DNA of 64,000 nucleotides. Origin: Lytechinus pictus (taxonomy: Eukaryota). Where the stretch lies: positions 8,496,001-8,560,000 of the forward strand of contig NC_087250.1 of assembly GCF_037042905.1 (NCBI RefSeq), written 5' to 3'. A program made the position numbers and the translations under genes. Positions 2,597-55,570 of this stretch are shown in pieces (positions within the stretch are counted from its first letter, which is position 1; each line of letters begins with the position of its first letter). Below the pieces are notes generated by a model. It searched no databases. It worked only from the letters and a program-made list of their open reading frames with translations, and was not told the DNA's origin.

Positions 2597-3250
2597 CTTT
2601 CATACAAGAGGGAAAACAAAAATTTAATAAATGAAAACCAATATTTTATTGTTCTAAGTAGATATCGTAAATAAAAATACTCTGAAAATTAATTTTACCC
2701 AACTGATCATTGGGCCTGGCAGCCACTGTGCAGCCCCAGATCAAAGTTGCCCTATCCCTTAAATCGTTGAACACCAAACAGGGTAGCAGCAAATAAATAC
2801 TAATTAATTTTGAAATGAAATAAAGAGAGAGACAAAAAAAATCTGAGATATTCAGTGAATTGCACTATTGCATCCAAAATGCACTATCCTGCACTCTGAC
2901 GTCATACCATAAGTACTATCCTGCACTCTGACGTCAGAGTGCAGGATAGTACAAGTTCTGGAATTATCTAGAATTTAGATCAAATATATCATTCGGGGCA
3001 GCTCAGTAACTTGGGTGAGGGGGAGGGGTTGTATAAAACAAACAATACACGCATTCTTGTGCATAGAGGACCTAAATAATGAACTCTGTGCTCGACTCGC
3101 CAAATGGATATACCGCACTCAGTCCTGCGGACCTCGGTGCGGTATATCCATTGGCTCTTCTTGCACATCGTTCATTATTTGGCCCTGCATGCACGCGCTT
3201 ACGTGCATTATTTGTATAATGCACGATGTGTGAGAAGAGCCAATGGATAT

Positions 3251-5055
3251 GATAATAGGTTCTCGTGCTAATCTCAGGAAAATAGATTCTTTCACGATTT
3301 CGTTAAACGGTGATTTGATAGTTCAGTTCAATTCACCAAATGCTTAGGAGTTTTGATAGATGAAGAACTGAAATGGTCAAAACAAATTGAAGTATGTAAA
3401 CTTACTCAGAAAAGTATTGGCATAATAAAGAGAGCGAAAAGTTCTGTGCCTGTGCAGTCCTTAAAGTTGCTTTATAACAGTTTAGTGTTGCCAAGATTTG
3501 ATTACTGTTCTGCTGTATGGTCGAATAGATTTCAATCCCATACAATTAAGCTGCAAAAAATTCAGAGGGGGTGCAAGAATAATATTGAACAAGACATACG
3601 ACACACCGTCGGCTGATTTGTTCGCAAGTCTTAACCCTAATTCTCCCGGGGGGGGGGGGGGCCATAATGGCCCCCCCCTCGACAATTTTCGCGATATATC
3701 TGCTTCGCGAATTTTTTTTACCTCGCCGCTCACTGACTTTTTACTTTCAAGTCTCGCGCAAATTTTGAGACCAAATTTGTGACGCCCGGGTACGCGGTTA
3801 CGACATTACGCAACATTATATAAGTGCATGTCAGACCCAAAATTGCTCATAAACGTGATTTCATGTACAAATCCAATGCAAATAGTGTACTTAGCCAAAA
3901 TTCATAAATGTATCATTATTTCTACTTTTACTGATTAAACTTAATTAATTTTGCCTTGTTTATGATCAGAATTAAGTCTGGAACGATTTCCATTGAAAAA
4001 ACAATAAAAAACCAAAAGTAAAAAAACAAAGAAATACATAAGAAATTCATAAAACAATAAAATACATAAGAAATTGATTTCCAAACCGAAGTTTTTTTTA
4101 ATTGCGCTTGTTAAGAATGCTACAAAGAATATTTTTACCAAAAATTAGCATTCTAGGAGCTTTATTTAGTGAATTAGAGCAAAAAGTATGATTTATGCAT
4201 AAATTAGCATAATTAATTCATATAAAATAAAATCTCAATATTTTGGAAAATTTTACCATACAGCCTTGTAGATTACATCACACACTACCAGCGTGCAAAT
4301 TTTTGCATCGCTCGCGCGATCGGCGGCCGAGATCTTAAGGGGGGGCCATAATGGCCCCCCCCGGGAATGACAAGAATCAAAATACCCCGGGAGCTTGAGG
4401 GTTAAATGGATGACACTAGACAAACGATTTGAGCTCAGTCGCGTTTTGATGATATATAAATGTGTTCATAATTTAGCACCTTCTTACCTTCAGGTAAACT
4501 TAACCAATCCAAATGATGTACATGAACATCATACCAGACAGAGAGACAGTGGATATTTACGCGTGCCCAAGTTTCGCACTGATTGTTATAAGTGTAGTCC
4601 AATTGTTTCTTCAATATTTGAATGGAATAAGCTTGATAATTCAATTAGAACAGCTCCTCCTGTCATTTCATTTAAGAGAATGTTTAAAAGAACTTGTAAT
4701 TTATAAATAACTTGCGGAACATCCACTGTTGTGCGTATTTTGTTTTAGCATGACCTTGATGATTTGGTGTATATCATCAGTATTTTCAAGATGTCGTTCT
4801 TAGTTAATTTGATTTATTGATATTTGATTATACGTCAAACGAGTGTCCGTCTGCGTTTTGTTTGCTGCTAAGTTTGTTAATGTTTCTTTTTACATTCAAA
4901 TCCTAATGTGAATTTTAATGCCGTAACATTCTGTACATACGTTATGCATTTTGTAAATATGTTTATTGTTATTCAGGGCCCCATGGAAGACCACTACTTA
5001 TTGGTGAATGGGCTACCCTGTCAAAATATCAGAAATAAATAAATAAATAAATAAA
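3251..5055 (+). mobile_element. 5'-truncated CR1/L2-type LINE (RT C-terminal part, (TAAA)n tail)
   Basis: LGVLIDEELKW, LYNSLVLPRFDYCSAVW, KCVHNLAPSYL, EWNKL motifs; frameshifted; split by a MITE. Confidence 0.85.
3635..4401. mobile_element. piggyBac-like non-autonomous element, TTAA TSD
   Basis: TTAA|CCCTAATTCTCCCGGGG...CCCCGGGAGCTTGAGGG|TTAA; removing it restores the LINE frame (SLKWMTL). Confidence 0.88.
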
Positions 5056-5501
5056 TATACCGCACCGAGGTCCGAGTGCAGTATATCCATTTGGCGAGTC
5101 GAGCACAGAGTTCACTTTTTAGGTCCTCTATGCACAAGAATGTTTTTTTTTTTTTATACAACCCCCCTCCCTCCCCTATGTTACTGAGTTGCCCCAAATG
5201 CTACATTTGATCTAAATTCTATATGATTCCAGACCTCGCACTATCCTGCACTCTGACGTCAGAGTGCAGGATAGTACTTTTGGTATGACGTCAGAGTGCA
5301 GGATAGTGCATTTTGGATGCAATAGTGCAATTTGCTGAATATCATGTGATCCGATTTGGACCAATCAGATTACAGAACATTCTTGGGAATTATATAATTC
5401 AGAATCACTGATCCTTTACCAAACCTTTTGTCCTATTCCACCTCTAATCCCCCTTCCACCATTCTCTCTTTCTCGATCTTGATCTTCTTTCTCTACCCTA
5501 C

Positions 5502-5736: not shown

Positions 5737-6010
5737 GGGCCCCGTCTTACAAAGAGTTAGGATTGATCCAATCAATCGTAACTCTATGGAAATCCATCAG
5801 TGCCATAAATTTTTCTACAGGAAATTTGCAAAATGTACTTTGTAAACAAAGGCGAACGCACCAAATTGTCAAGAAAACAATGATTTGATGGGATACTTCA
5901 TTATCTAAAAAAAACATTTTTAACAAACATGCATTTTAGATGTGGACGTTGCTGGCTTTCCATAGTTGAGGTTGATCGGATCAATCGCAACTCTTTGTAA
6001 GACGGGTCCC
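5737..6010. mobile_element. ~270-bp MITE (TIR GGGCCCCGTCTTACAAAGAGTT); other copies at ~22529-22799, ~23902-24180, ~62087-62363
   Basis: ~45-bp TIRs, four dispersed similar copies. Confidence 0.8.
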
Positions 6011-6569
6011 AGGGGCCCGTTGCATAAAAAGTTATTATTATGGGAACTTTGCCATCCAATGGTAACTACCATGGTAATAATAACAATAATAACGGCATAT
6101 TTACCCAGGGTAGCCACTTCAGTTCCGAAAACTGTTCTCCCAGCGGGCCCTGCTATTATTACCCCGGCTTTAGCACGGCTACCTTGATTGGGCGCTCGAG
6201 TTCAAGGAATTTCTTCCTACCGGGTATCCATTCACCTCACCTGGGATGAGTGAGGCACAATGTGGATAAATTTCTTGCCGAAGGAAATTACGCCATGGTA
6301 ACAATGATCAACAGTCAATCAAAATCAAGGAAACCATGGAAGTTACCATAAAAGTAACTTTTATACAAAGGGCCCCAGAAGTGTTAAGTATTTCATGAAA
6401 AAAAATATCTTCATCGTCATAATCTTCTATTACGGGAATAAGGTGGCGGCCTGTAACTATTACTATTATGGTAACTTCCATGGTTTCCTTGATTTTGATT
6501 GACAATTGTAAATTTTAGTCACATTTACATGTTTCTGAAACATTCCTGGAAATAAGGAAATGAGCCCAC

Positions 6570-8087: not shown

Positions 8088-9025
8088 CTGAATAATGACA
8101 AATAACAAAATAATGAATTTTCACCACTTTTGTGAGAACTTCCAAGGGGTAGAAGCCAGGTGTCTGCCACTGGGGGTGGGGACAGGAATGGGGAGTGTTC
8201 AATACTTCATCGGACACATCGTTTCCCTACCCCCTTCTGTAAGAAAATATTGATATTCATCATGAACCATGAAAAAAAGATGGGAATTTATTGAACATAG
8301 ATGTGGCAACTGCCACATAGGAAGCCACAACATGGATATTTCATATACTATCATATTCTTTGCAGGATATTTATATTATATTGGATGGCTCTGAATGGAA
8401 TACCAGAAATATTCCAAGAGTTTGGGCAAATATTCCACGAATCGCAGATGAGTGGAATATTGGCCCTAAGGAGTGGAATATTTCTGGTATTCCATGAAAT
8501 AAAGCCATCCAATATAATTATCATCTATCCCACCCCTTGCAATAAAAAAAGAGAGAAATTTGATTGAACAAGTCATATCCACTTATCACATAATGGCGAC
8601 ATCACTTCATATGATCAAATTTGGTCGTTGACATGCGACTTGCATGTAGTTCATTATGACCGTAATAGAGTGTCATTGTGCTCTTATGCTGCGCATCGCA
8701 TTGCTTTCATTGATGTGCGCGTTGTATATTTCACGCATTCGCGCATGCGCACTATACTGTTGAATATGCTCTCATACTCAATAGCAAATTTTGTACAGGA
8801 GCCTACGGGATATTCTTTGGATTTTGGTCATTCTAGGGATATGCTCTGATACTGCACAGGCAATTGATGCAGACCAAAAATACGCGTTTTTAATGAATGG
8901 CTAAAACACTATATAGATGATAACCATCAATCCTTCACCAATATTCTTCTCTATTCTGTCTCCTTTTATTAAATCCATCTTGTCCTTGGGGTGAGCTTCC
9001 CCTTCAGCGAGAAAATACCACTCAC

Positions 9026-9251
9026 CTGTGGGGAAGCCTCATGCGGCGTGCTGCTCAGGCTACCGGTCTCCGTTATCGCTCTCTTCTGGGGTATATCAAT
9101 AGGGGGCGCCGCGCTGTTATGCGGATGTGGAAGGTTTTCGTGCGCCTCTGTGGTCAATCCGTTGGAGGCCTGCGTTGAGGACTGCGGTAAGCTGGTAGGC
9201 AGGGGGTCTGTTCTGTCCACGATATCTGAAGGTGTGTCTTTTGTTGTGTGG
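9026..9251 (-). CDS. CNOT4: CNOT4 exon 11, S/P/T-rich region
   Basis: In frame with ORF 8969..9220; ag/gtgagt boundaries, phase 2 to 0. Confidence 0.8.
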
Positions 9252-9346
9252 CTGTTTAGGAGGAGGCAATGTAAAATGAATATTGACGTGAACAGCTCAA
9301 TTCTATCCTGGGCCCCGTTGCATAAAAGTCACTGTTATGGTAACTT

Positions 9347-12300
9347 TATGAGGCGCCGAATGTACCAATATTATATAGAACAATTATTTGTTATATAATC
9401 ATTATTTATTAAATAATAACTATTATTTATATATAATTTACATTTTATTTGTAAATAACTACTATTATATAAAATATCATTTCTAATTATTTATATATAA
9501 TTCCAAGTAATACTTCATTATTTGTAAATAATAATAGTTCGACATTCCATTATTTATAAATAATGATTATTTGTTTTTCATTATTTATAAATAATGATTA
9601 TTTGTTTTTCATTATTTATAAATAATGATTATTGGTTTTTCATTATTTACAAATAATGATTATTTGTTTTTCATTATTTATAAATAATTTGTTGAGTTTT
9701 CCATTATTTATAAATAATGATTATTTGTTAAATAATGAAAACGTCTACTTCATTATTTATAAATAATTTTTTCGAGTGCACCATTATTCTCATTATTTAT
9801 AAATAATCATTATTTAATGTTCGAGTTTTCCATTATTTATAAATAAAGATTATTTGTTAAATAATGAAATATCTACTTCATTATTTATAAATAATAATTT
9901 TGTTTCAATATCCCATTATTTATAAATAATCATTATTTATAAACAATTTTTACAGTTTGCCATTATATACAAATAATCATTATTTATATACAAATAACCA
10001 TTATTTATTAAATAATGCCATTATTTATTAAATAATGCCATTATTTATTAAATAATGGTAAACTCGCTATAACATGCAAATGTAGGACCGCCCATGATAT
10101 GAATATTCATGATGCGATTTCCTTTTTCGTGATTTTTCTTCACAATTTTTTGTCCATTTCCTCTTCATAATGACATTTCTTGAAGCAATTTTCTAGGGAT
10201 ATGGTCTGATTGTAATATTCTTCATTTTCTATATAACTTCGTCTTCGTAGAAATATCAAAAAGTGTAATTTTATACGATTTTTCCTACAGTTCACAATCC
10301 CCATAGGCGCGCGTGTATCGTAGGGACAACCGGTGAATCGACGGAGTGCTCTTCATCGAAATACTACGTTGGTTGGTCCCCGGAAGTGGCGGGCGGAATT
10401 TAGCCCGAATCCTCGATGGAAGTCGATCAAGTGCATATGAGCTGAGAGAGTGAAATATCAGTGTACTTGTACACTCAGGCCCTTTCACTTTTTATAAATA
10501 TTTCTTGTTGCTTTTTTTGTTAAGTTAATTTTTCCTGGTGTAGAGATAAGTTTCAGTTCTAATAATGCACTTCAAATACATTGTGGAGTGTCTGTTTATG
10601 AGGCGTTTGGGGCGATTTCACCCTGGCCCCAAAATGCTCGCAACGACAATACGGGGGCATGATGACCCCTAAATTTTTAAAAACTTATTTTTCTATTGAA
10701 AATTATCACAAAATTCACCAAAAGTGTGCACGAAAGCCTTCGTATTTCACTTTTAAAAGTCCAAAAAGTGCCCAAATGACAAGCTTGGTCGCTTCGCTGT
10801 GTCGCTTTCAACTTGAGAACGTTTACGCGTCTGCTTCGATCGATCCCCCCCCCCCCCTCCTCCGTAAGAAATTCTGTATACGGCCATGCTCTAAAGAGCC
10901 TGGCTCATTGATTTATGTATACTTTCATTTTCATTATTTTTATCTCATTATCAACATGGCCTTATACGCAGAATTTTTTCCAGGGGGGCCGGGGCCGGAG
11001 CATGACGCGCGTAAACTTTCTCAAAAAAATCTTGAAAGCGAGACAGCGACGCGACCAAGCTCAAATGAGCTTGGTCGCTTCGCTTTTTCAAGATTTTTAT
11101 GAGAAAGTTTACGCGCGTCCTGCACCCCCCCCCCCCCCCCCCGGAAAAAATTCTGCGTAAGGCCATGTTGATAATGAGATAAAAATAATGAAAATGAAAG
11201 TATACATAAATCAATGTGCCAGGCTCTTTAGAGCATGGCCGTATACAGAATTTCTTACGGAGAGGGGGGGGGGGGGGGGGGATCGATCGAAGCAGATGCG
11301 TAAACGTTCTCAAGTTGAAAGCGACACAGCGAAGCGACCAAGCTTGTCATTTGGGCACTTTTTGGACTTTTAAAAGTGAAATACGAAGGCTTTCGTGCAC
11401 ACTTTTGGTGAATTTTGTGATAATTTTCAATAGAAAAATAAGTTTTTAAAAATTTAGGGGTCATCATGCCCCCGTATTGTCGTTGCGAGCATTTTGGGGC
11501 CAGGGTGAAATCGCCCCAAACGCCTCAAACAGACACTCCACAATGTATTTGAAGTGCATTATTAGAACTGAAACTTATCTCTACACCAGGAAAAATTAAC
11601 TTAACAAAAAAAGCAACAAGAAATATTTATAAAAAGTGAAAGGGCCTGAGTGTACAAGTACACTGATATTTCACTCTCTCAGCTCATATGCACTTGATCG
11701 ACTTCCATCGAGGATTCGGGCTAAATTCCGCCCGCCACTTCCGGGGACCAACCAACGTAGTATTTCGATGAAGAGCACTCCGTCGATTCACCGGTTGTCC
11801 CTACGATACACGCGCGCCTATGGGGATTGTGAACTGTAGGAAAAATCGTATAAAATTACACTTTTTGATATTTCTACGAAGACGAAGTTATATAGAAAAT
11901 GAAAAATATTACAATCAGACCATATCCCTAGAAAATTGCTTCAAGAAATGTCATTATGAAGAGGAAATGGACAAAAAATTGTGAAGAAAAATCACGAAAA
12001 AGGAAATCGCATCATGAATATTCATATCATGGGCGGTCCTACATTTGCATGTTATAGCGAGTTTTCCATTATTTAATAAATAATGGCATTATTTAATAAA
12101 TAATGGCATTATTTAATAAATAATGGTTATTTGTATATAAATAATGATTATTTGTATATAATGGCAAACTGTAAAAATTGTTTATAAATAATGATTATTT
12201 ATAAATAATGGGATATTGAAACAAAATTATTATTTATAAATAATGAAGTAGATATTTCATTATTTAACAAATAATCTTTATTTATAAATAATGGAAAACT

Positions 12301-12778
12301 CGAACATTAAATAATGATTATTTATAAATAATGAGAATAATGGTGCACTCGAAAAAATTATTTATAAATAATGAAGTAGACGTTTTCATTATTTAACAAA
12401 TAATCATTATTTATAAATAATGGAAAACTCAACAAAATTATTTATAAATAATGAAAAACAAATAATCATTATTTGTAAATAATGAAAAACCAATAATCAT
12501 TATTTATAAATAATGAAAAACAAATAATCATTATTTATAAATAATGAAAAACAAATAATCATTATTTATAAATAATGGAATGTCGAACTATTATTATTTA
12601 CAAATAATGAAGTATTACTTGGAATTATATATAAATAATTAGAAATGATATTTTATATAATAGTAGTTATTTACAAATAAAATGTAAATTATATATAAAT
12701 AATAGTTATTATTTAATAAATAATGATTATATAACAAATAATTGTTCTATATAATATTGGTACATTCGGCGCCTCATA
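9347..12778. mobile_element. 3.43-kb palindromic foldback element with 6-bp TSD TAACTT
   Basis: TATGAGGCGCCGAATGTAC...GTACATTCGGCGCCTCATA; arms nearly identical; axis at 11064-11065; TSD at 9341-9346 and 12779-12784. Confidence 0.9.
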
Positions 12779-13299
12779 TAACTTTGCCATCCAGTGGTAA
12801 CTTCAAGGAAATCCTTGATTCTGATTGGCTGATTAGCATCATTACCATGGTAGTTACCATTGGTTGGCAAAGTTACTAGTAATTTTTATTCAACGGGGCC
12901 CTGGTGCTTCCTTTCGAAGCTGTAAATGTTTGAATTCTCGCTATCGAAAAAATAACCAAAATAGTGCTGGGTGATTTTTCGATAAAAAATAATGAATATT
13001 TGATAATGGTTTTATGATAAGGTTGAAACACTGTGGTAACACGATGTTGTTGATTATGAAAACCAAATCACTATTTTTGAACAAAAATGCCGTTTTGTAT
13101 TGCTATAAACCAACTCGGAACTTCAATCCCCGACCATGGCACTTACTGTATGCCTGGGAGCAAGGTCTTTAATCAACAGTGTTCTTTTATCCAACATTGA
13201 AATAAATGGGGGAGAAAAAAATAAAAATCCATATTTCATTGTTCGAAATGATCTATCTGAAATAGAAATACTTTGAAAACTCCTTTTTCCCAATTGATT

Positions 13300-13815: not shown

Positions 13816-13829
13816 AATACATAGTTAAC

Positions 13830-13982
13830 CTGTGTATTGTAGATTCTTCTCTTTGTGTAGTTGTTTCATCCCCTCCCTCAGTGTTGTTGGGTTTACTTAA
13901 CGATGGCCAGGAATTTGTCGTTATACTAGGGCTCCCTCTACTGTTCGACTTCTGTGTGGTGGGCGGCGATGGCTGCTTTTTT
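13830..13982 (-). CDS. CNOT4: CNOT4 exon 10, low-complexity region (KKQPSPP...NSWPSL...)
   Basis: Open phase-2 exon with ag/gt boundaries and WPSL motif. Confidence 0.75.
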
Positions 13983-14210
13983 CTGTCAATTTACGACACA
14001 AGGAATAATCATGTTACAGTATGCAATACATGGTTTGGGTTAGGAAAGTTGACTTCAAACGAACAAGACCAATGACAAAATGAGGAAAAGGGAAATATTT
14101 CATAAAATATGTGAAAAGGGGTAAATATCATCATAGAAAGTAACACTACCAGAACACAGTAAGCCCAATGCACAGAAACACAGCCAGTCTGAAGCCCTGT
14201 TAAGATTCTA

Positions 14211-17593: not shown

Positions 17594-18692
17594 ACAGCAG
17601 ATCCCCTGTTTTGGGGTATAACATTTGAGTGATCGCAAACCAGCTCACCTTGTGATTACCCCATGTGGTGAATACACCAAGTTATGGTTTGAACCTAGTG
17701 ACAATTAGACCAACTGACGTTTGGTCCAAATGTCAAGTAATAAGCTCAGAGCACACTATGCGATCCGATACGACACAATTTTTAAATGAATCGCAGTTTG
17801 CATTAAATATTAAACTTCCAAGAAGTAAAATTAATTAGCGGCAAGCCCTTTGGCCGGAGTAAAGTCCATATCAGCTTCAAGTCGCAGCTGATGAAGACAT
17901 CAGTATGATTTGGAATTTAATTATTTGCTTTTATTCCTACAGGGAGGTTTGAACTAGACTGAATTATAGATTGAGCACCCACTGGACTGCCAGGGTCAAA
18001 TAAAGTCCACTGAATTACTGTAGTCAATAAAGACCATTTGACCCTATCCAGTGGGTGCTTACACAAAAAAAGTTACTATTATAGTAACTTTGCTCTCCAA
18101 CGGTATTGGTAACTACCATGGCAACAATGATCAACTGCCTATCAAATCCAAGGATTCCATAAATTTACCATTGGACGGCAAAGTTATAATAATACTAATT
18201 TGTATGCAACAGGACCCAGATGGAATGAAACTCACAATAAAAACCTGATGTACAGACCTGCCAACCTCTGGGAATGAAAAACTGTATTCTTTGATAAAAA
18301 AAATGTATTTTTCCGCAAAAAAGTGAATTTCATAATAAAATGCTTGGCGCACTCGTTCATCGCGGCGCTCAAGCTGCATGCAAGCTAAAATGCGCACTGC
18401 TCTTGCAGATGAAAAAAACACATTGAAACATGTGTATATCTTCACCCTGGTTTTAACAAAATGATTGAAAAAAAAGTTACCTGAAATTACATTGATCTAA
18501 TGACCATATTTGTGTACGTTTTATGAAATAGAGACATATAGAGATGATTTTTCTCAATAAATTACGATTTCGTTAAAAAAAAAAATTAAAAAAAAAAATT
18601 AAAAAAAAAGTATTTTGGTTGCAAAAAACGTACTAAATACGCCTAAAACGTACTGGTTGGCAGGTCTGGATGTATTGTATAAAAACACTTAC

Positions 18693-19923: not shown

Positions 19924-20353
19924 CTGTAAGTAAAAAAAAACATAATATCCAAATATTTCAAAAATAAACGCCTATTGTGGTAAAGATTTCAAAGTTAGCT
20001 TGTACAGAATCCAATAAAATGACTATCCAAGTGCGTTTGCATACATACATTAAAAATGATGTGGTAAAGGAATCTGAAAAAAATTGCCACATTGCTGAGA
20101 AATGAGCAAATATGCATGGGATATGGAGTATTTTTCCAAGCAATAATAATAATACACTGTCCCACATGTGCTTATCTGCGTTGGTGCTCTACAGTGTGGT
20201 CATTTATTAGCTTAGATTTCAGGATTAGATTTAACAAAGTTCAGTTTATGCACGTGTACCAGAGCTAGATACTACAGTGACTATTTATCTTGGTTTGAGA
20301 GATTTCCTGTGAAATTATTGTTTACTGCAACTTCTTTCATTCATCTTTATTAA

Positions 20354-21122
20354 CCCTAATTCTCCCGGGGGGGGGGGGGGCCATAATGGCCCCCCCTTGA
20401 CAATTTTCGCGATATATCTGCTGCGCAAATTTTTTTGACCTCGCCGCTCACTGACTTTTTACTTTGAAGTCTCGCGCAAATTTTGAGACCAAATTTGTGA
20501 CGCCCGGGTACACGGTTACGACATTACGCAACATTATGTAAATGCATGTCAGACCCAAAATTGCTCATAAACGTGATTTCATGTACAAATCCAATGCAAA
20601 TTGTGTATTTAGCCAAAATTCATAAATGTATCATTATTTCTACTTTTACTGATTAAACTGAATTAATTTTGCCTTGTTTATGATCAGAACTAAGTCTGGA
20701 ATGATTTCCATTGAAAAAACAATAAAAAACAAAAAGTAAAAAAACAAAGAAATACATAAGAAATTCATAAAACAATAAAATACATAAGAAATTGATTTCC
20801 GAACCGAAGTTTTTTTAATTGCGATTGTTAAGATTGCTACAAAGAATTTTTTTACCAAAAAATAGCATTCTAGGAGCTTTATTTAGTGAATTATAGCAAA
20901 AAGTATGATTTATGCATAAATTAGCATAATTAATTCATATAAAATAAAATCTCATTATTTTGGAAAATTTTACCATACAGCCTTGTAGATTACATCGCAC
21001 ACTACCAGTGTGCAAATTTTTGCGTCGCTCGCGCAATCGGCGGCCGAGATCTTAAGGGGGGCCATAATGGCCCCCCCCCCCCCGGGATTGACAAGAATCA
21101 AAATACCCCGGGAGATTGAGGG
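20354..21122. mobile_element. Second copy of the piggyBac-like TTAA MITE
   Basis: Highly similar to 3635-4401; TTAA at 20350-20353 and 21123-21126. Confidence 0.88.
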
Positions 21123-21402: not shown

Positions 21403-22069
21403 CCCTATCTAGGCCGGGGTATTTTGGGAGTTCATATGGCGGGGGGGGCCTTGAGATCTCGGCCGTCGACCGCGCCGAAAATTGGCACGCAGGTTGTCTG
21501 ATTAGTATGCGATATCATACTTTTTCCTCTAATTCTGTAAATAAAGCTCCAAATGTTCTAATTTTTGGCATAGAAACTCTTTGTGGTTTTCTTAGCAAGT
21601 TTACATGAAAAAAATTGTGATATCAGATCAATTTCATATGTATTATATTGTTTTTTGCAATTCCTTATGCATTTCTATGTTTTTTGGACCCTTTGTTTTT
21701 CATTGATTTTTCAATGAAATTCGTTGGGGACTCTTCTAAGATCATAAACAGCATAAAATACATACATTTAGACCAGCAAAACTAAAAATAATCATACATT
21801 TATGATTTTTGGTTGAAAACACAATTTACATTGACTTTGTATACGAAATCACGTTTTCGAGCAATTTTTGGTCTGACATGCACTTACATAACGTTGCGTA
21901 ATTTCGGAACCGCGTACCCGGGTGATGCAAAATTGGTCTCAAAAGTTGCGCAAGACTTGAAAGAAAAAAGTCAGCGAGCAGCACGGTCAAAAAAATTTGT
22001 GCGGCTAAAATATCGTGCGGCCCTTTGAAGGGGGCCTCCGAGGCCCCCCCCCCCCCGGCCTAGATAGGG
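21403..22069. mobile_element. Related piggyBac-like TTAA MITE subfamily, opposite orientation
   Basis: TTAA|CCCTATCTAGGCCGGGG...CCCCGGCCTAGATAGGG|TTAA; empty site visible in the paralogous segment near 19714. Confidence 0.82.
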
Positions 22070-22388
22070 TTAAGACTATGTATTTATAACACACAGTCAA
22101 TGAGATACCACACACAGTTCACTCCCCCTTTAAATCAAGTAAATATGTAAGCTAGAGTCGATTTGGTCTGTAAAACTAGTACTGAAGGTCAAGTACTTTA
22201 TCCACAAATGTGCAACGCTCCTAAATTTGGAAAGGCTAAATCAACCAGTTAATACAGAATGGTAGCAAACAAGAGAAAAAAAAAATCCTCCCAGGTTTTC
22301 GTTGGTAGGAATTTATGCCACTTTAAAAGAATTCCTGGAAAACCTACTTTTTGTATCATGATTAGTTTCAGGTCTTTCTCCCACTTAC

Positions 22389-22478: not shown

Positions 22479-23135
22479 CTGTCGAAAAATAATGCACGAA
22501 AAAACATATCATGAAAAACAGTTACCAGGGGCCCATCTTACAAAGAGTTGTGATTGATCCGATCAATCGCAACTATGGAAAGCCAGCAAAGTCAACGTAT
22601 AAATTGCATGTTTGCTCAAAATTTTCCCCTACAAATGAATGTATATCCATACATTAATTGATTTCTTGAAAATTTTGTGCATTCTCCTTTGTTTACAAAG
22701 GACATTTTGCAAATTTCCTGTGGAAAAAATTATGACACTGATGGATTTCCAGAGTTGCAATTGATTGGATCAATCGTATCTCTTTGTAAGACGGGGCCCT
22801 GTTGTGGTAACAGTCTAAAAACGATTATGAATTCATAAAATCCAACAAAATTAATAAGATGTGTCTAAAGATTGATAAAATAGATGCAATTCCACCCAGA
22901 AGATGGGCCTTTTTCTAAGCAACAATGATACACAGTCCCACATATGCTTATCTGTGTTGGTGATCTTAACTGTGATCATTTTTCAGCCCAGATTTCATGG
23001 TAATACAAATGATGATGACAACTATAAATGAAAGAAATAATAAAATAATAGAATAAAAGTATTCCATACTCCACTCGTTGTGAAACAACCCCCCCCCCCT
23101 CCATAACAAAATTTTAGACGAGCTTTAAAACTTAC

Positions 23136-23248
23136 TGTTCCTCGGAGAGTGGTTTGAAGTCTGCGGGGCATTCAGGGTAGGCCTTTCTGCATGCAGGACA
23201 CAAACCATTCTCATCTGTGCGAATACGATGCCAACAGAACCGACAAAT
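23136..23248 (-). CDS. CNOT4: CNOT4 exon 3, RING C-half (ICRFCWHRIRTDENGLCPACRKAYPECPADFKPLSEE)
   Basis: Manual translation, ag/gtaag boundaries, phase 0 to 2. Confidence 0.96.
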
Positions 23249-23660
23249 CTATGAAGAAAACAATGAGAAAATTATGATACTAAACCATTATCATCTGTAT
23301 GAATACGATGCCAACAGAACCGACATATCTATAAAGAAAACAATGCGACAAACATGGTAAAAAACCATTATCATCTGTATGAATACGATGCCAACAGACC
23401 TGACAAATCTATTAAGAAAACAATAAAAAAAATTATGATACTAAACCATTATCATCTATATGAATACGATGCCCACAGAACCGATAATTCAATAAAGAAA
23501 TCAATGGGACAATTATAACATTAACATTAAGCCATTCTCATCTGTACGAATACAATGCCAACAAAACTGACAAATCTTATAAAAGAGAAAGACAATTACA
23601 ATAATACATCATTCTCATCTGTAAAATTATGAAGCAAACAGAAATTGACAAATCCATAAA
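23202..23660. repeat. ~80-bp tandem repeat x6 containing the exon-3 acceptor and first ~47 coding nt
   Basis: AAACCATT.TCATCTGT..GAATACGATGCCAACAGAAC.GACAAATCT recurs with an 80-bp period and decays away from the exon. Confidence 0.9.
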
Positions 23661-24943
23661 AAAAACGCAATGAAACAATTAAGATAAGTGATTAAAAGCT
23701 GCACCAAATTACATATTTGGGCACAGGGAAAAAATTTAAATCGGGGCTCAGGGCAATTTCACTCCCGATACCTTAAAAAGAGCTCTGGAAAATGGAAGAG
23801 AGGCTCAGAAAATCTGCATTCACTGCAGTGTTAAAGCTTATCCAATGTTCCAGATTTTAACAGTAGGTTGTCAAAAGTAACCTCTGAAAAAAAAAGTTTC
23901 CTGGCCCCGTGTTACAAAGAGCACTGTTACGATTGATCCAATCAATCTCAAGTTTATGGAAATCCATTAATGTCATAACTTTTTTCTCTAGGAAATTTGT
24001 TCAATGTCCTTTGAAAACAAAAAGAAGCATACTGAATTGTCAAGAAAACAGTGAATGTATAAATATACATCATTTCTAGAAAAGATTTTGAACAAACATG
24101 TATTTTAGATGTTGACATTGCTGGCTTTCCATGGTTACTTTTGATCCGATCAATCGTAACTCTTTGTAAGACGGGGCCCCAGGTCTATCTTGTATGTTGT
24201 CTTCCTGGACTATAGCTTGAGTCTTCTAAAGTTTAATTTTTTTTTTACATTTGGGTTTTCTATTATTAGATCATTATTAAAGATCCCAGATTATAACTAG
24301 ACTGCTTTACATGAATGAGATCGCACAGGTACATGTATGGGGGTGAAAGACCATAGAGGCTTTGAAAACGAGTGTACAAGTCTTTTTAAACTACAGTCAA
24401 TGCTATATAGAGTGTTCAGTGTTTTAAATTATGCAACTCCCCAGAATGTTCTGTAATCTGATTGGTCCAAATTGGATCACATGATATTCAGCGAAATTGC
24501 ACTATTGAATCCAAAATGCACAATCCTGCACTCTGACGTCATACCAAATGTACTATCCTGCACTGTAGGATAGTGCGAGGTCTGGAATTATCTAGAATTG
24601 TCTAGAATTTAGATCAAATATAGCATTCGGGGCAACTCAGTAACATGGCGGAAAGGGGGGGGGGGGATTGTATAAAACAAATAATGCACGTAAGCGTGTC
24701 CATGCAGGGCCAAATAATGAACGATGTGCGAGAAGAGCCAATGAATATACCGCACCAAGGTCCGCAGGACCGAGTGTGGTATATCCATTTGGCAAGTCGA
24801 GCACAGAGTTTATTATTTAGGTCCTCTATGCACAAGAATGCACAAGAAATAGAATTTTATGCACAAGAAATAGAATTTTCTTTTTCACTAGAAAATTGCT
24901 CCCGAAAAAATGCATTACATAATCCCACATTAGCCAAACTCAC

Positions 24944-35211: not shown

Positions 35212-38200
35212 TAGTATCCCTAAATTAGACCACAAAAGAGCCAATCTGGAATAAAATTATTGGAAATGGTTTTTTGACTGATTTGAGTAGGTATGGGTGT
35301 CAACATTTACCAAAAAAAAGTTAGGAGGAATACGGGTTGGGGAAAGTGCTTTTTTTCAAGGTCAAAGGTCAATGACCTTTTTGTATATACTGTATAATGG
35401 TATATCTGAGATGGAAAGGCGCAGGTTGGTGATAATGGTGTCAAAATGCACAAATTCTTACCAGAATATCAAATAGAATAGAATTAATTACCTAGAATGC
35501 ACATTTACCTATAAAATTCAAGGTCAAAGCCTTTCAAAAGGTCAATCACCTTTTTACATTATATACCATACCGTATAATGGTATCTCTGCGATGATAAGG
35601 TACATGATGGTGATCATGGTTTAAAAATGTACAGATTCTTACAAGAAGATCAAATAAAATAAACTTAAGTACCTAGAATGCACATTCACCAATAAAATTC
35701 AAGGTCAAAGCTTTTCAAAGGTCAATGACCTATTTACATTATATACCATACTGTATAATGGTATCTCTGAGCTGAAAAAGCACAGGTTGGTGATCATGGT
35801 GTCAAAATGCACAGATTCTTACCAGAAGATCAAATAGAATAAAATTAAGTACCTAGAATTCACATTCACGCGTAAAATCTAAGGCCAAAAGTCAATGTCC
35901 TTTTATACTACATGTATATATACCATATTATATAATTGTATCTCTAAGATAAAACGGCGCAGGTTGGTGTTCTTGGTGTCAAAACACGCATATTCTTACA
36001 GGAAGATAAAATAAAATTAAGCATCGAGAATGCACATTCACCCATATAATTCAAGGACAAAGGTCAATGTCCTTTTTAACATTAGATAATAATAATGGTA
36101 TCTCTGAGATAAAACACCGCAGGTTGGTGATCTTGGTGCCAAAATGCAAAGACTTGTACAAGACAATTAAACAACACTAAAATAAGTATAAAGAATAAAC
36201 TTTCACCCTTGAAATCCTAGATCAGAGGAAATATATAATCTATATGACATAAAAATAACCAAAAAAAAACATGAAAACATGGAGGTTTCATAATTTCGGT
36301 CTGAAATAATGAAGGCCATGGAGAATGTACATTGTATTTAGGGGTCAGATGTCAATGAGCCCTTTCCAAAATATCAGTGGAAATTAAGTAAAAAATGTTG
36401 ATAACCAAATAACACTTTTTCATGTACTGCGATGCATTGCCAAAAGCACTGAAAAAATAAATAAAATCAAGTATATAATTTGAAATGATTTTTATTTTAA
36501 GTAGCAGCATTTAATGCATCATTATATCTAAATCAAGGTTGTCATGTCTTTTCTCTGCAGCGATAGGCCACTCACCTCAATGCTACAATAAATACTATAA
36601 ACTATTAGCTTAATCTTTTGAAAATGGATAGGATAGGCCTAACTCTCATGTCACAGCTAGCATCATCTGAGAGCATTTCCAAACAGCAGAGGGATGATGA
36701 TGATGATGAAATGAAGGCCATCATTAGAGCTGCAGCTTCTGTCATACATGTACATGTAGTAAATTACATATATATCAACTTCAACAAAGGTGAATTCCCG
36801 TATTATTATTAATTACCTTTCATCAGTTCGTTGCGAACTGCCAGAATCTCTTGTGATGCTAATGCTGCAGGAGAAAACTTCATATCTGCTCTCTGCCGTA
36901 CGTCACCCATGATGCTATTTCTACTAGGTATCAGTTTGTACAAGGATCATGTTTTTGGTCCAGAACAACTGATTGCTATCATGCACAAATTAGGCATATA
37001 ACAATGAAATTCACAAGGAGATAATAGCTTACAAGTACACATCCATCGACCTAACAAAAGTCCTACAGCACCACTTCCAGTTCTTGAGAATCAAGCTGTG
37101 CAACATATCAGTCATAATATAGATCCTGGTCTGATATCCCTTGACAGAACGTAAGGCTTTCATTGAATGGGCCAGATAAAAGTCTTGAAAATGTCAGAAG
37201 GTTTTCAAGAGTCCAATTACTCTTTGCTGATTGAAGTTGAGACACTTAACTTCATCTATGACAAATTAGCTGCAGCTCTAATGATTGCCTTATCTTAATT
37301 CTTCGTCATTGTCCCTGGCTATATGAAAATGTTACCGGATGATGCTTGCCCTATAAAGAGTTAGGCCTATCCTTTCCATTTACAGATTAAGTTATAGTTT
37401 TATAGTATTGATTGTAGCATTTGAGGTTAGTGACATATTGCTACAGAGAAATTAGTACCTTGATTTAGATTTATAAAATGCATATCTAAATGCTACTACT
37501 TTAGGTAACTTCACCATTGTCACCGCCATTTAAAATTGTATCACACATTATTTTTTTTTACACTTTTGTCAATCCATTACAGTATATTATAAGAAAAAGT
37601 GCTATTTTATCCAATTTTACCTCGAACTTGTATTTTGACATCATAATTGGTCAAGGATTCAACTATTAAATTTGTGTTCTTTTTCCACGCAGGTCAGTCT
37701 TTTTTCCATCAGAATCACTATACCTACATGCCACAATCACGTTATATCGACCTATTTACTTAAATTCCCTGACGTTATTGACATAGTTGATTGACCTTTA
37801 ACTCCTAAATATATTTTCCATGGCCATTTTTTATCCTTATTTCAGAATGAAATTATTTAATAGACTTCCATGTTTTCATTACAAATAGTTATCTTTCTTT
37901 CTATTATTTACAAATAAAATGTGAATATAATGGATTAATTTCTTTTTTGGGGGGGAATCATGCATGGATATATAAATATTTATCAACTTTTGACCTTTGA
38001 CTTTGGATATTGGATTATTCTGTATGATTATTTTGAGTCTTTTTTATCTTCTTGCAAAAATTGCTTTTTGACATCAAAATCACCAACATGCAGCGTTTTA
38101 TCTCAGAGATACCTTTATATGATATATAGCATATGTAAAAAGGTTATTGACCTTTGACCTTGAACTTTATGGATTAATATGCATTCTAAGTGATTAACTT

Positions 38201-39007
38201 TATCTTATTTGACCTTCCTGTAAGAATCTTGGCATTTTGATACAACGATCACCAACCTGTGCTGTTTCATCTCAGAGATACTATTATACAGTACGATACA
38301 TTATGTAAAAAAGGTCATTGACCTTTGAAAGGCTTTGACCTTGAATTTATTGTTTAATGTGCATTCTGGGTACTTAATTCTATTTTATTTGATCTTCCTG
38401 TAAGAACCTCTGCATTTTGACACCAAGATCACCAACCTGCACCTTTTCATCTCAGAGATACCATTATACCGTATATGGTATACAATGTAAAAAAAAGGTC
38501 ATTGAGCTTTGAAAGGCTTTGACCTTGAATTTCATTGGTGAATGAGCATTGTAGGTACTTAATTTGATTACATTTGATCTTTCTGTAAGAACCTCTGCAT
38601 TTTGACACCAAGATCACCAACCTGCACCTTTTCATCTCAGAGATACCAGGATACCGTATATGGTATATAATGTAAAAAAGGTCATTGAACTTTGAAAGGC
38701 TTTGACCTTGAATTTCATTGGTGAATGAGCATTGTAGGTACTTGATTTTATTTTATTTGATCTTCTTGTAAGAATCTATGCATTTTGACACCATGATCAC
38801 CAACCTGTAATATTTTATCTGGGAGATACCATGATACAGTATATTTAAAAAGGTCATTGACCTTTGACCTTGAAAAAAAGCACTTTCCCCAACCCGTATT
38901 CCTCCTAACTTTTTTTTGGTAAATGTTGACACCCATACCTACTCAAATCAGTCAAAAAACCATTTCCAATAATTTTATTCCAGTTGGTTACTAATTACGG
39001 GATACTA
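35212..39007 (+). mobile_element. Decayed Academ-type DNA transposon with long subterminal inverted tandem arrays
   Basis: TAGTATCCC...GGGATACTA termini, 3-bp TSD TTA, ~175-bp units in inverted arrays, internal transposase remnant. Confidence 0.78.
36846..37190 (+). pseudogene. Academ transposase remnant
   Basis: LLGISLYKDHVFGPEQLIAIMHKLGI* and HNIDPGLISLDRT*GFH*MGQI resemble recalled Academ motifs (FGS..LI..L..LG; DN.D....T.DG...FH). Confidence 0.55.
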
Positions 39008-41097: not shown

Positions 41098-43730
41098 ATG
41101 ACTCGTGAAGGATGGGAAGAACATGAAAGACTTGAAACAGAATACAATCAGTGCCTCCAAAAGGCACTGGAGAAAACACAACAAAATATGTCAGTCCTTG
41201 CCCAGGAACTGCAGAAGGTAGAAAAGTCAAAAGCACGCTGTGAGGTACCGTAAGTAACGGTGTATTAACTGCACCTTTTTCTTGGCGGGATATAAGCAAA
41301 AGTCGGGGGTGCGGTTTATCCACGGTGACGGGTCTGAGCCCGCCCGCGTAACCCCTCCCGAACATGTAAGAAGTCTGCCAGTTCACAACACATCGAGTGG
41401 CCGGGCGTAGCCACCCAGGGCAATGTCGTTTAGAGGGGTATGAGCCGCGGGTAATGGGAAGCGATTATTACGATCTAAATCAAATAGTGTCCATAACAAA
41501 TGCACCCACCTTCATGACACTAATTTCAACTTTATTCTCGATTCAAAGCAGCGAAGTTCCCTGGCTAAGTTCAAAGAGACGCCAAGCATTCTCGGTAATA
41601 ATTTCTCACAGCTGAGCAAGAGCCGAGAGCTAGCTTGCGTTGTATTGTGGTTTGAGTGCGACTTAAGCTGGCGCTATTCATTTTAACCCCTCAAAGTCCC
41701 GTTTCGCGCCAGCTTATTTTTCCTTTCCTGTTTGCTTTTCATAAGATACCATGTACACCGTGCACCACGTATGAGAGAGACAGCACAAAGCCGTAAAACA
41801 ACTGGAAAAAATGCCAATTTCTTTGTTTCTTGAACATTCCTGTAATCCCGTATCCAAAATTCATGCTAAGCCATCGAATGCTAGACGAATTCTGAAAGTG
41901 ATTGTGAGGTTGTGATGCAAGAAATGTGAAAGACACAGTTCACAATTTGATATTAAAGATGTACTGGTAGTGGTACCGTATCGAAGTTTGCAATGTACAT
42001 GTACAAGAACGGCAGTGATGTGTGTGTGTACACTGTGACTGTGAGGTGAGTGTGTAAGTGGCCAATATTGTTGGGACCTTTCTTTCTTGCTAACATTTGT
42101 AGATGAATTGATCAAGAACAGCAGATTTCCGCATACCGGTAATCTCTTTGAATACTTTGAAATCTTTAACTTAGTTTTTTTTTTTTTGGGGTCCAAAGTT
42201 GGGGGTGCGGTTAATACACAGGTGCGGTTAATACACCGTTACTTACGGTACTCAAAGACCAATTCAAAGTTGAGGCTTCAGACCTGAGAACTGAATGTAA
42301 CAGGCTGAAACGACAATTGAAAACTGTGGATGATCATTGTCAGCAACTTGAAGAGCAGATCTAAAAAACATTGACTCCAAGATTAGTTACAGCGACTGGA
42401 CAAAAAATTGAGTGACTGAAAGGAAGGTTCTCAAAAGATCAAAGACCTACAGAAAGAAATCAGACAAAAGAATAGAACATTGACAGAAATGGAACATATG
42501 GTAAACGGAGTAATGGAAGAAGAGAAGGTTATTTCAACATTTGAAAATGGACGTTATAATGAAGACATTCGACTGACTGTATATGAATATGTATCCATGG
42601 GAGTCGGTTCAAAGAAGGTGGCTGACATAATACGATCAGTTCTCCAAAGAGTTGGTAAGTTGAAAGTAGGGAGACTTCCAAAGCCCTCACTTGTGAAATA
42701 CATGGCGACAGAGCAGGGCTTACTAGCAAAACAGGCAGCATTTCATTCCATGAGAAACTCAGAGAATATAACCCTGCATTTGGATGGAACAACCAAAAGA
42801 AGGAAACATTTCGTTACTTACTGTACCTCTCAACAACAAACAGTGGCACAGTTGCTATGGGTCTGGATGACATATACTCTGAAACTGCCGACGAGTTGGT
42901 ACACAAAGCTGAAGAACGTCTTCAAGGAGTAACCAAAATATTACCAAGTGAATTAGCAAATGATAACCAGGAGGAAGTTCTAAAGATGCTCGTGAGTGTA
43001 AAGAATGTCATGACAGATAGTGAGATAGAGCAGCAGTGAAAAAGGCCTTTGTGAAAAAGTTTGCAGATTGGAGAGCTAAAGTCTTGCCAAAAATAATACC
43101 ACAGTGGGAAGAACTCAGCGATGGCATAAAACAGCAAATCAAAGTTCAAATCAATGACATTTACTGTGGAAAGCATCTTGTCTTGAATTTTCAAGAGTAC
43201 GCACAATCTGCACTCTATGAATGGGAGCAAGTTGAATCAAACAGTGGCAAACTTGGAAGAGAGAAACACACATTGTGGACTCGTGGTAATGAATCGGCAA
43301 CAATGCTTGCAGTGCATAGTATCTGCTCGTATTTTGGACCGGATGCTGATCCGCAAAGTGGTTACCAGTATTCTTTTGAGTTTCTAGTAATCTAGTCCAT
43401 CTTGAAGATGTGTACCAAGATCAACCGCATTTGCAAGAATTCAGAGGAAATCGATTCAACATACCTTCTGAGAATTCAAAGGCAGTCTGTTACCACATGC
43501 CACATATCAAGAGTCTTATGCACTCCTATCTTGAAAGTGAGAGAAATCTTGTCTGTGGGACTGCGAGGATCCCATAATTGTTGGCGGGATAAGAGCAATG
43601 GGGATGCTCGAAAGACAGCTGACATCTAATGCTTGACAGTTCAATTCACGTGATGGACACATCAACATACTATCAGAGGGCCTTCAACAAAATAAAGCAG
43701 ATGATGGTCAATCCCACTTTTAGATGAAGA
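41098..43730 (+). pseudogene. Decayed DDE transposase with CxxH motif and N-terminal coiled coil
   Basis: ORF pieces TLHLDGTTK, KNVMTD, IYCGKH joined by frameshifts; the frame runs across the 41248-42248 insertion once it is removed. Confidence 0.7.
41248..42248. mobile_element. Tc1/mariner(pogo)-type non-autonomous element, TA TSD
   Basis: TA|CCGTAAGTAACGGTGTATTAAC...GTTAATACACCGTTACTTACGG|TA. Confidence 0.85.
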
Positions 43731-48629: not shown

Positions 48630-49100
48630 GGGGGGCGCCAAATTGACGTTCGACTTAGGGGGGGGGGGGGTGCCGAATTTATATTCAACCTGGAGGCGCC
48701 GAATCGATGTTCTACCTCGGGGCGACAAATTGGAGTTTGATATAGGGGAAGCCGAATTTATGTTCGACTTTGGGGGGGGGGGGGCGCTGAATTGATGTTC
48801 GACTTTGGGGGGGGGGGCTGAATTGATGTTCTACCTACGGGCGCCGAACTGATATTCGACACATAGCCGGGGGCGCCGAATTGAAGTTCGACACAGGGGC
48901 GCAGAATTGATTTTCAACCTAGGGGCGCCGAATTTTTGTTCGACATAGGGGGTGCCAAATTGAAGTTTTTCTAAGGGACACCGAACCGATGTGCGACCTA
49001 TAGGGTGCCGAATAGATGTTCGACATAGGAGCACCAATTTGATGTTTGTCCTGAGGCGCCAAATTCATATTCGACCTTTGGGGCGCCAATTTGAGGTTTG
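48630..49100. repeat. ~31-bp degenerate minisatellite (GGGGCGCCGAATTGATGTTCGAC)
   Basis: About 14 tandem degenerate units. Confidence 0.85.
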
Positions 49101-53400: not shown

Positions 53401-53673
53401 CGTAACTCTTCAAATTTCCATTTAATCAACCCTAAATTGCTTATTGCGCAGAGATCCATAAGACACCATGGTCCAGATTTGTGGAACTCTCTACCAGAGC
53501 CTGTAAAACAATCTTCGTCTCTTCACTCATTTAAGGCAAACGTTAAATCTATGTTATTATCAGAATATTTGAAGTAAAATTTCTGTGTCATATCCTTTTT
53601 ATCGTGAATTTATTCCTCCTTCGATTTAGTCATTACCAATATCTTCATCATGACCACCATCATCTCCATGGCC

Positions 53674-54710: not shown

Positions 54711-55205
54711 TCGTTATTATTTCTATTATATATTATTGTTTTAAAACAAGCTCATTCAGAAATTCAGAAATAACGTGCATGCTGTACGTTCAACAGCTCG
54801 ACACCCCTTCCAAATCACCCTCACACACTCCTCCCTCCCTCACACACACACGCCCACATCATCACACACATCTCCCTATACACACAACCATCACCCACAC
54901 ACAATGAAATAATCACAATTGGTTTAATAGTAAACTGCCCTCAAAACAAAATCGTAGATTTTAAAAGGAGCGTATAGCTCTCAAAATAAAGTCACACTCT
55001 TCGCCCGTGCCCATGATATGACAAAAAATAAAAATGAAATATCCGTTTCTGAAACAGTCGTGAAGAACACTTCTTTCAGAAACGGATTTTGAATTCTCTT
55101 TTCTTGGTCAAATCATGTAATGGGTACTGACAAAGAGTGTGACTCTATCTTCAATTCATACATACATACATAATATATATATATATAATTATATATATAT
55201 ATATA

Positions 55206-55570
55206 TTGTGAAAGAAATGGATGAAGGGAACAATGGTAGGCGTAGCTTAAATCAAGGGTCCCCGGAGCTATCTACCCTTTGGAAAAAAATTGTGATGCCG
55301 AAAAAATGTCTCTGCCGGGAATCGAACCCGGGCTCGCAGCTTTGAACGCCGTTGCCTTAACCATTAGACCACAGAGACGGGTTAGTGGATAGGGCAACCC
55401 CGATCCGATTGACCGTCAGAGAGACGGATTTTTGACACTATACTAATTGTAATTTCCTTTGTCGGGTGTAGGTGGGATTTTGAATTTGATTTTCCAAAGG
55501 GTAGATAGCTCTGGGGAACCTTGATTTAAGCTACGCCTACCATTGTTCTCTTCATCCATTTCTTTCACAA
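55206..55570. mobile_element. MITE with ~80-bp TIRs in a (TA)n tract, carrying a tRNA-like gene
   Basis: 55206-55286 is inversely repeated at 55490-55570. Confidence 0.8.
55308..55378 (-). tRNA. tRNA-like gene or pseudogene with apparent anticodon TCA
   Basis: Manual cloverleaf GTCTCTG-TG-GTCT AATGGTTA AGGC-A-ACGGC GTTCAAA GCTGC-GAGC-CCGGG TTCGATT CCCGG-CAGAGAC followed by ATTTTTT. Confidence 0.55.

Follow-up and report, generated by a model that had tools for sequence, protein, structure and literature searches.

A palindromic foldback-shaped insertion in a CNOT4 intron of Lytechinus pictus, probably of IS3EU/GingerRoot type

The sea-urchin foldback transposon TU carries arms with an outer tandem-repeat domain and an inner unique domain, makes an 8-bp target-site duplication and has a non-palindromic middle. 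The present analysis concerns a palindromic, foldback-shaped element in an intron of the gene CNOT4, within a 64,000-nt stretch of the sea urchin Lytechinus pictus (RefSeq assembly GCF_037042905.1, contig NC_087250.1, positions 8,496,001 to 8,560,000 of the forward strand), which is called the window below and from whose first letter all positions are counted. The element was best explained, with a probability of roughly 0.68, as a recently inserted, non-autonomous cut-and-paste DNA transposon of the IS3EU/GingerRoot type with foldback architecture. It ends in TA..TA, interrupts a miniature inverted-repeat transposable element (MITE) with a 6-bp target-site duplication and is non-coding; its arms are modular, and their divergence shows a step at a central unit of 213 bp. 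The features are listed in Table 1.

An arrangement of outer tandem, inner unique and middle domains has been found in foldbacks of flies, plants, nematodes and the sea urchin, most of which were placed in the Mutator superfamily (PMC4079207, PMC3169594). As characterized in the reports cited, Tetris, Tm1, Muta1 and Drosophila FB resemble the present element in being non-coding and in the modular build of their long arms, of which the outer domain is tandem and the inner one unique (PMC4079207, PMC3169594, PMC5499845). Moreover, the arms of Tetris reach 1,735 bp, which is comparable with the arms found here (PMC4079207). These elements were assigned to or suggested for Mutator, with duplications of 8-10 bp and a distinct middle, whereas the element in CNOT4 has a duplication of 6 bp and a hairpin as its middle. 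Furthermore, copy 112 of Galileo from Drosophila willistoni measures 9,021 bp, with arms of 4,246 and 4,680 bp, about 95 bp left and no transposase (PMC4168063). It is similar to the present element in consisting almost entirely of terminal inverted repeat (TIR), and in that tandem repeats and transposon fragments were copied into both arms (PMC4168063). However, Galileo is a member of the P superfamily, makes a 7-8-bp duplication, and its middle is not described as a hairpin in the sections of that report drawn on here (PMC4168063). Because this copy has already been published, near-spacerless foldbacks of kilobase size are not new. Foldback architecture was described mainly in the Mutator and P superfamilies (PMC4079207, PMC5499845). 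No description of foldback-shaped IS3EU elements was found in the literature searched, with most subscription journals, Repbase Reports and supplements lying outside its scope.

An earlier note on this DNA reported a palindrome of about 3.4 kb with a 2-nt loop at 9347..12778, and these coordinates proved exact. In a global alignment of 1,725 columns, the two arms differed by 14 substitutions, and 18 columns held gaps; two of the gap columns are the loop itself, and 16 remained with the loop excluded. The differences amounted to 21 events in total. By blastn, the arms of the whole palindrome were 98.1% alike, and the runner-up among inverted pairs of similar size in the window reached 82% over 985 nt. 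The longest perfect stretches of the arms were 376, 371 and 344 nt, while the perfect pairing beside the loop extended over 13 bp only. The arms were also said to differ at only a handful of positions, which held for the outer 1.47 kb and failed near the axis, where 12 of the 14 substitutions fell within 235 nt. In the window, no other copies of the terminus, the inner arm or the central unit were found, and the only matches were homopolymer-driven or of 29 nt at most. The other scanned genomes yielded no look-alike stretches.

The insertion site was placed in CNOT4, which is transcribed from the minus strand of the window. The RRM exon matched CNOT4 proteins, the best named ones being those of Strongylocentrotus purpuratus and Lytechinus pictus, and the frames of the gene gave Pfam matches to zf-RING_4 and, weakly, to RRM_1. 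The variable C-terminal exons matched the L. pictus protein at 76-100% (most 91-100%) and the S. purpuratus protein at 54-84%, which places the host in Lytechinus or near it. The host intron is 4,578 nt long (donor at 13829, acceptor at 9252), and the element lies 1,051 nt past the donor and 95 nt ahead of the acceptor. The exons flanking the intron are consecutive and join in frame, giving a sequence found in the L. pictus CNOT4 protein. The placement in a CNOT4 intron given in the earlier note was thus borne out by consecutive exons, a restored frame, and agreement of the Pfam and protein matches. Elsewhere in the gene, an 80/161-bp tandem repeat at 23135-23583 holds three partial copies of the start of the CNOT4 RING exon, ahead of the full exon at 23248-23135. 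These copies (at 23581, 23408 and 23328) match residues 31-50 and might possibly serve as alternative acceptors or decoy exons.

The same note had described a TAACTT duplication splitting a host MITE. The repeat is perfect on both sides of the element, and a perfect 6-bp repeat at the spacing of the palindrome was obtained in 85 of 200,000 random placements. When the element and one copy of TAACTT were removed, the resulting empty site restored the host MITE of about 160 bp, aligning at 114 of 152 positions with the copy at 18078-18226 and at 51 of 59 with that at 6009-6067. Since the unique flanks, the gene frame, the duplication and the split MITE all agree, the insertion itself is very likely real. 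Further copies or fragments of this MITE family lie in CNOT4 introns at 6009-6081, 6293-6378, 6469-6501 and 18068-18226, and the one near 6469 adjoins an exon boundary region.

The ends of the element were examined in registers starting at -2 to +3 and ending at -2 to +3, with repeat lengths of 2-11 bp. The register 9347/12778 with 6 bp was the sole one that combined a perfect duplication with arms complementary from the first base, in this case over 344 nt, and in this one insertion the element therefore ends in TA..TA with a 6-bp duplication. No perfect repeat of 8-11 bp occurred in any register tried. According to previous work, TA..TA termini are present in all complete IS3EU families, 6-bp duplications are usual in them, and GingerRoot represents the same lineage (PMC10045372). 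Among GingerRoot copies, 72 of 77 had TA..TA termini, 72 of 77 had a 6-bp duplication, and the TIRs were 100-150 bp long (PMC6839031). The end of fungal IS3EU elements was given as TAYGG (PMC12730594); four of these five letters match the end found here and the fifth base differs. For non-autonomous elements, the rule of Repbase is based on the first 11 bases matching a classified family (PMC4455052). The present element thus has TA..TA termini, a 6-bp duplication and terminal inverted repeats in common with IS3EU/GingerRoot, and differs in having no transposase, arms of 1.6-1.7 kb that make up the whole element, and a subterminal palindrome array. Because TA..TA with 6 bp is the only register giving both a perfect duplication and symmetric ends, membership in IS3EU/GingerRoot is likely, as judged from the end signature of one copy without transposase. 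The superfamily had previously been called unclear, a statement that can now be replaced by a best candidate.

An unlikely alternative places the element at 9348-12777, as a foldback of TU-like or Mutator, P or hAT type whose duplication is 8 bp long and has mutated, in one copy, at the base adjoining the element. Sea-urchin TU likewise has outer tandem and inner unique domains and makes 8-bp duplications, and the 8-bp register, at the cost of one mismatch, retains 343 nt of symmetric ends. In addition, most foldbacks are of Mutator type with duplications of 8-10 bp (PMC4079207, PMC3169594), whereas no perfect duplication of that length, as known for Mutator-type foldbacks and TU, was found here. 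The 8-bp reading needs a substitution within a duplication that borders arms differing at 2 of 1,474 positions, and needs it at exactly the base that adds end symmetry. Moreover, three of four look-alikes of the host MITE carry G at the mismatched base, as does the left-hand side, and the A on the right is for this reason better read as part of the element.

Similarly improbable is a non-autonomous derivative of another superfamily with duplications of 6-7 bp, namely Polinton/Maverick, Ginger2 or a Galileo-like P element (7 bp). Polinton and Ginger2 are both listed with 6-bp duplications, as found here, but Polinton termini are AG..TC and Ginger termini TG..CA, compared with TA..TA in the present element (PMC6839031). 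Galileo makes 7-8-bp duplications and has near-spacerless copies (PMC4168063), and a perfect 7-bp repeat does exist in the register 9348/12778. However, this register leaves the ends asymmetric by one base, and no duplication of 7-8 bp with symmetric ends, the combination of P/Galileo elements, was found.

The arms showed the long outer tandem-repeat and inner unique domains that characterize foldbacks. At each end lies a GC-rich tip, which would presumably be the primary recognition end for a transposase; no other copy of it occurred in the window at up to 3 mismatches over 16 nt. The tip is followed by an AT-rich domain in which a 16-bp perfect palindrome is repeated at a spacing of 17-49 nt, some units extending to 18-20 bp, with periodicities of 31 bp (seven times) and 129 bp (twice). 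Each arm contains 9 exact units and 15 at up to 1 mismatch, and none at up to 1 mismatch was found elsewhere in the window, in agreement with the earlier report of an outer domain of about 700 bp made of tandem self-complementary units. The inner CpG-rich domain had no homologue elsewhere in the window. It contains, at 10380, one word that we take to be ETS-like, and a promoter remnant is a weak possibility for this domain. The longest stop-to-stop frame in the element has 166 codons, none of the 6 frames tested had a Pfam match, and no Rfam family was detected in the element at gathering thresholds. The absence of a transposase frame noted before was thereby confirmed, and would be expected of a non-autonomous copy. 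The description of a young, non-coding, foldback-shaped insertion with a 6-bp duplication was likewise supported.

An array of GC-rich units of about 26 bp at 48630-49100 holds every exact match of 10-12 nt to the terminal 30 nt of the element outside the element, where a 12-mer match was expected 0.0015 times per start position. It was rejected as a relative, as it shares 12 nt with the terminus, no other similarity, and has no inverted partner in the window. These matches are unexplained and possibly due to chance.

The palindrome has two ages, that is, near-identical outer arms and an older, imperfect central hairpin of 213 bp. Substitutions between the arms numbered 2 in 1,474 positions of the outer zone, 3 in 133 of the middle zone and 9 in 108 of the inner zone. 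Compared with the outer zone, Fisher P values were 0.005 for the middle and 1e-9 for the inner zone, the zones having been drawn after seeing the data. The central unit, X2, is presumably MITE-like and has a paralogue, module X1, further out in each arm and in opposite orientation. Their homology gave a local score of 102 against a maximum of 28 in 500 shuffles, with 15-17 substitutions per 100-103 aligned bases. X1 runs about 170 nt past the point where the central unit turns back, and the axis is where X2 stops following X1: positions 11062-11068 equal 10773-10779, followed by a 3-nt gap and 16 identical bases. In each central half, some X1-like states survive that are gone from the other, and the two halves have therefore diverged independently. 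The central unit is read here as a truncated X module with an ancient fold-back, or else as a MITE of the X family. No target duplication of its own was found for the central unit at lengths of 2-10, and no partner for the bases before X1 at lengths of 6-9, so that neither stands out as an independent insertion. The left arm alone has an exact 9-nt copy of the element terminus at the far end of X1, at 10597-10605 (expected 0.005 in the inner arm), and the right arm is without its first two bases. This copy is perhaps the mark of a smaller element, of the same family, nested there. The middle domain measures 2 nt; with the arms restricted to the parts that are more than 97% alike, it becomes the imperfect hairpin of 213 bp. 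The centre had been called spacerless, at odds with the known instability of such palindromes. The 2-nt loop agrees with this; however, the centre is formed by a hairpin that is older and imperfect, its halves differing by about 10% substitutions, and the contrast is for this reason weaker than stated.

The interior of the palindrome is less secure than the insertion, and some central differences sit in homopolymers. It is quite improbable, though, that a real insertion has an interior that is partly an assembly artefact, in which a fold-back read or collapse lost a longer middle, or polishing evened the arms or left errors at the axis. Fold-back artefacts do occur in Nanopore and PacBio reads (PMC12870357), several of the central differences fall in homopolymers, and the analysis is based on the assembly sequence alone. 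On the other hand, unique flanks continue on both sides and the CNOT4 coding sequence is without loss, and the duplication and split MITE are the trace left by transposition. Furthermore, among the differences at the centre are substitutions outside homopolymers and a deletion of 6 nt flanked by short direct repeats, which, together with X1-like states split between the halves, would not be expected from one duplicated read. An origin without transposition is very improbable; here, a broken intron would have been repaired by templated insertion and inverted duplication, and the 6-bp repeat would be due to chance. Fold-back priming does yield inverted duplications at breaks (PMC11724301, PMC7999016). 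However, the arms are not copies of neighbouring DNA, the repeat has the low chance given above, and the tip, subterminal array and inner domain form the anatomy of a transposon end.

Several points weigh against an IS3EU-type foldback with a two-age palindrome. The element is a single copy, with no second insertion to back its ends or the duplication length, and it has no transposase, the assignment being made from the ends alone. TIRs described for GingerRoot are 100-150 bp compared with 1.6 kb here (PMC6839031), and only four of the five letters of the fungal end are matched (PMC12730594). The 8-bp register with one mismatch keeps symmetric ends too, and TA makes up 8% of dinucleotides, which renders the terminal match weak by itself. 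Regarding the two ages, divergence in the middle zone of 133 nt likewise exceeds that of the outer zone, which fits a gradient as well as a step, and some of the divergence at the centre falls in G/C homopolymers, which are plausible places for sequencing errors. In addition, X1 has at the axis a mini inverted repeat of just 2 bp, compared with the 5-9 bp of repeats reported to bring about fold-back (PMC7999016).

Table 1. Coordinates of the element, its parts and its surroundings in the window
Feature	Position	Strand	Basis or remark
CNOT4 exon upstream of host intron	13830-13984	-	protein match; donor at 13829; 5' boundary approximate
CNOT4 exon downstream of host intron	9014-9251	-	protein match; acceptor AG 9253-9252; 3' boundary approximate
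Interrupted host MITE (~160 bp), left part	9307-9346	+	empty-site alignment
Left target-site duplication, TAACTT	9341-9346	+	perfect 6-bp repeat
Left arm, starts with TA	9347-11063 (1,717 nt)	+	arm alignment
GC-rich terminal tip, 19 bp	9347-9365	+	53% GC vs 11-15% in outer domain
AT-rich outer domain, array of 16-bp perfect palindrome	9366-10060	.	repeat and periodicity analysis
Inner non-repetitive CpG-rich domain	10061-10590	.	CpG observed/expected 1.14-1.20 vs 0.71 for window
Module X1, MITE-like, outward-facing, paralogous to central unit	10597-10888	-	alignment with central unit
AT-rich linker between divergent modules X1 and X2	10889-10954	.	position between modules
Central 213-bp imperfect hairpin (X2L + X2R)	10955-11167	.	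halves differ at 10/100 aligned positions, plus indels
Axis loop, 2 nt	11064-11065	.	alignment and folding; folds as 4-nt loop on 12-bp stem
Right arm, mirror image of left, ends with TA	11066-12778 (1,713 nt)	-	arm alignment
Right target-site duplication, TAACTT	12779-12784	+	perfect 6-bp repeat
Interrupted host MITE (~160 bp), right part	12785-12904	+	empty-site alignment

For movement of the IS3EU-type element, an IS3EU DDE transposase acting in trans would recognise the GC-rich tips, possibly aided by the subterminal array of 16-bp palindromes. By analogy, more subterminal repeats led to more binding and excision in Muta1 (PMC5499845). The ends would then be joined to a 6-nt staggered cut inside the MITE, a step whose trace is seen in the duplication. 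Two routes may account for the symmetry of the arms, at about even odds. In the first, the older central hairpin would prime fold-back synthesis or a template switch, and an inverted copy of one half would take the place of the other half of the parental element, leaving two identical, usable ends. Inverted repeats of 42, 79 or 229 bp seed large palindromes when they lie beside a break, as found in yeast and hamster cells (PMC7999016). Such palindromes resemble the present one in being large, near-identical and centred on a smaller, older inverted repeat, here with arms of about 100 bp, but they were described for broken yeast and mammalian chromosomes and not as a bounded mobile element (PMC7999016). 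In the second route, long TIRs would grow inward and be kept alike by conversion, with the central unit escaping. Inward growth of TIRs with conversion was proposed for Galileo, in which inserted transposons became part of both TIRs (PMC4168063).

Whichever route was taken, the mismatched centre, with 13 perfect base pairs followed by about 10% substitutions and indels, should act as a soft spacer that lowers cruciform and hairpin formation. Because the centre is where cruciforms begin, and similar arms raise instability while a longer spacer reduces it (PMC7999016), such a centre should ease the persistence of the palindrome. This one copy is compatible both with an element that moved as a palindrome and with one that took on this form in place. 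A further idea, rather unlikely at present, is that fold-back copying of one end is primed time and again by a MITE-like hairpin inside the element, and that a sea-urchin IS3EU family multiplies as whole palindromes, perhaps via a hairpin single-strand intermediate, with the mismatched centre serving as both priming site and stabiliser.

The window contains several other repeats. A second, older foldback-like element at 35241-38987 has arms of about 970 nt that are 82% alike, tandem units of 180-183 bp and a middle of about 1.8 kb. At 42420-43395 (+), there are broken reading frames that look to us like a transposase; these frames gave no Pfam match, and Atlas features there match unnamed eukaryotic clusters at 0.96 and 0.95. 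A long interspersed nuclear element at 50802-53577 (+) has endonuclease and reverse-transcriptase domains and is broken by stops. The sole Rfam match reported in the window was a tRNA-like sequence at 55307-55378 on the minus strand (55.1 bits), which sits between inverted arms of 114 nt ending in (AT)n, at 55173-55603.

In RNA folding, the central 326 nt on the transcript strand were predicted to form a single stem of -238.8 kcal/mol (z = -25.9), as would be expected of any such repeat. The transcript strand of the element also contains six AATAAA words. The double-stranded hairpin in pre-mRNA proposed in the earlier note is a prediction: the CNOT4 pre-mRNA, transcribed from the minus strand, could form a 1.7-kb stem ending 95 nt ahead of the 3' splice site. 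Dispersed inverted repeats that are 77-93% alike by blastn were found at 3627-4192, 20350-20909 and 21514-22077, at 2847-3147, 5055-5343 and 24416-24841, and at 56753-56916 and 61829-61992; those inside the gene could also pair in the CNOT4 pre-mRNA.

With a stem of this length so close to an acceptor, this conserved CCR4-NOT gene offers a ready natural test of A-to-I editing and of splicing tolerance, especially if the insertion is polymorphic. If the family does multiply as palindromes, its insertions would be a standing source of kilobase double-stranded RNA in host pre-mRNAs. In addition, the divergence step at the older central hairpin provides a model, open to testing, of the formation and persistence of kilobase palindromes in an animal genome. 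A clean example with the IS3EU signature would extend foldback architecture to an integrase-related superfamily, and none of these points needs a new kind of system.

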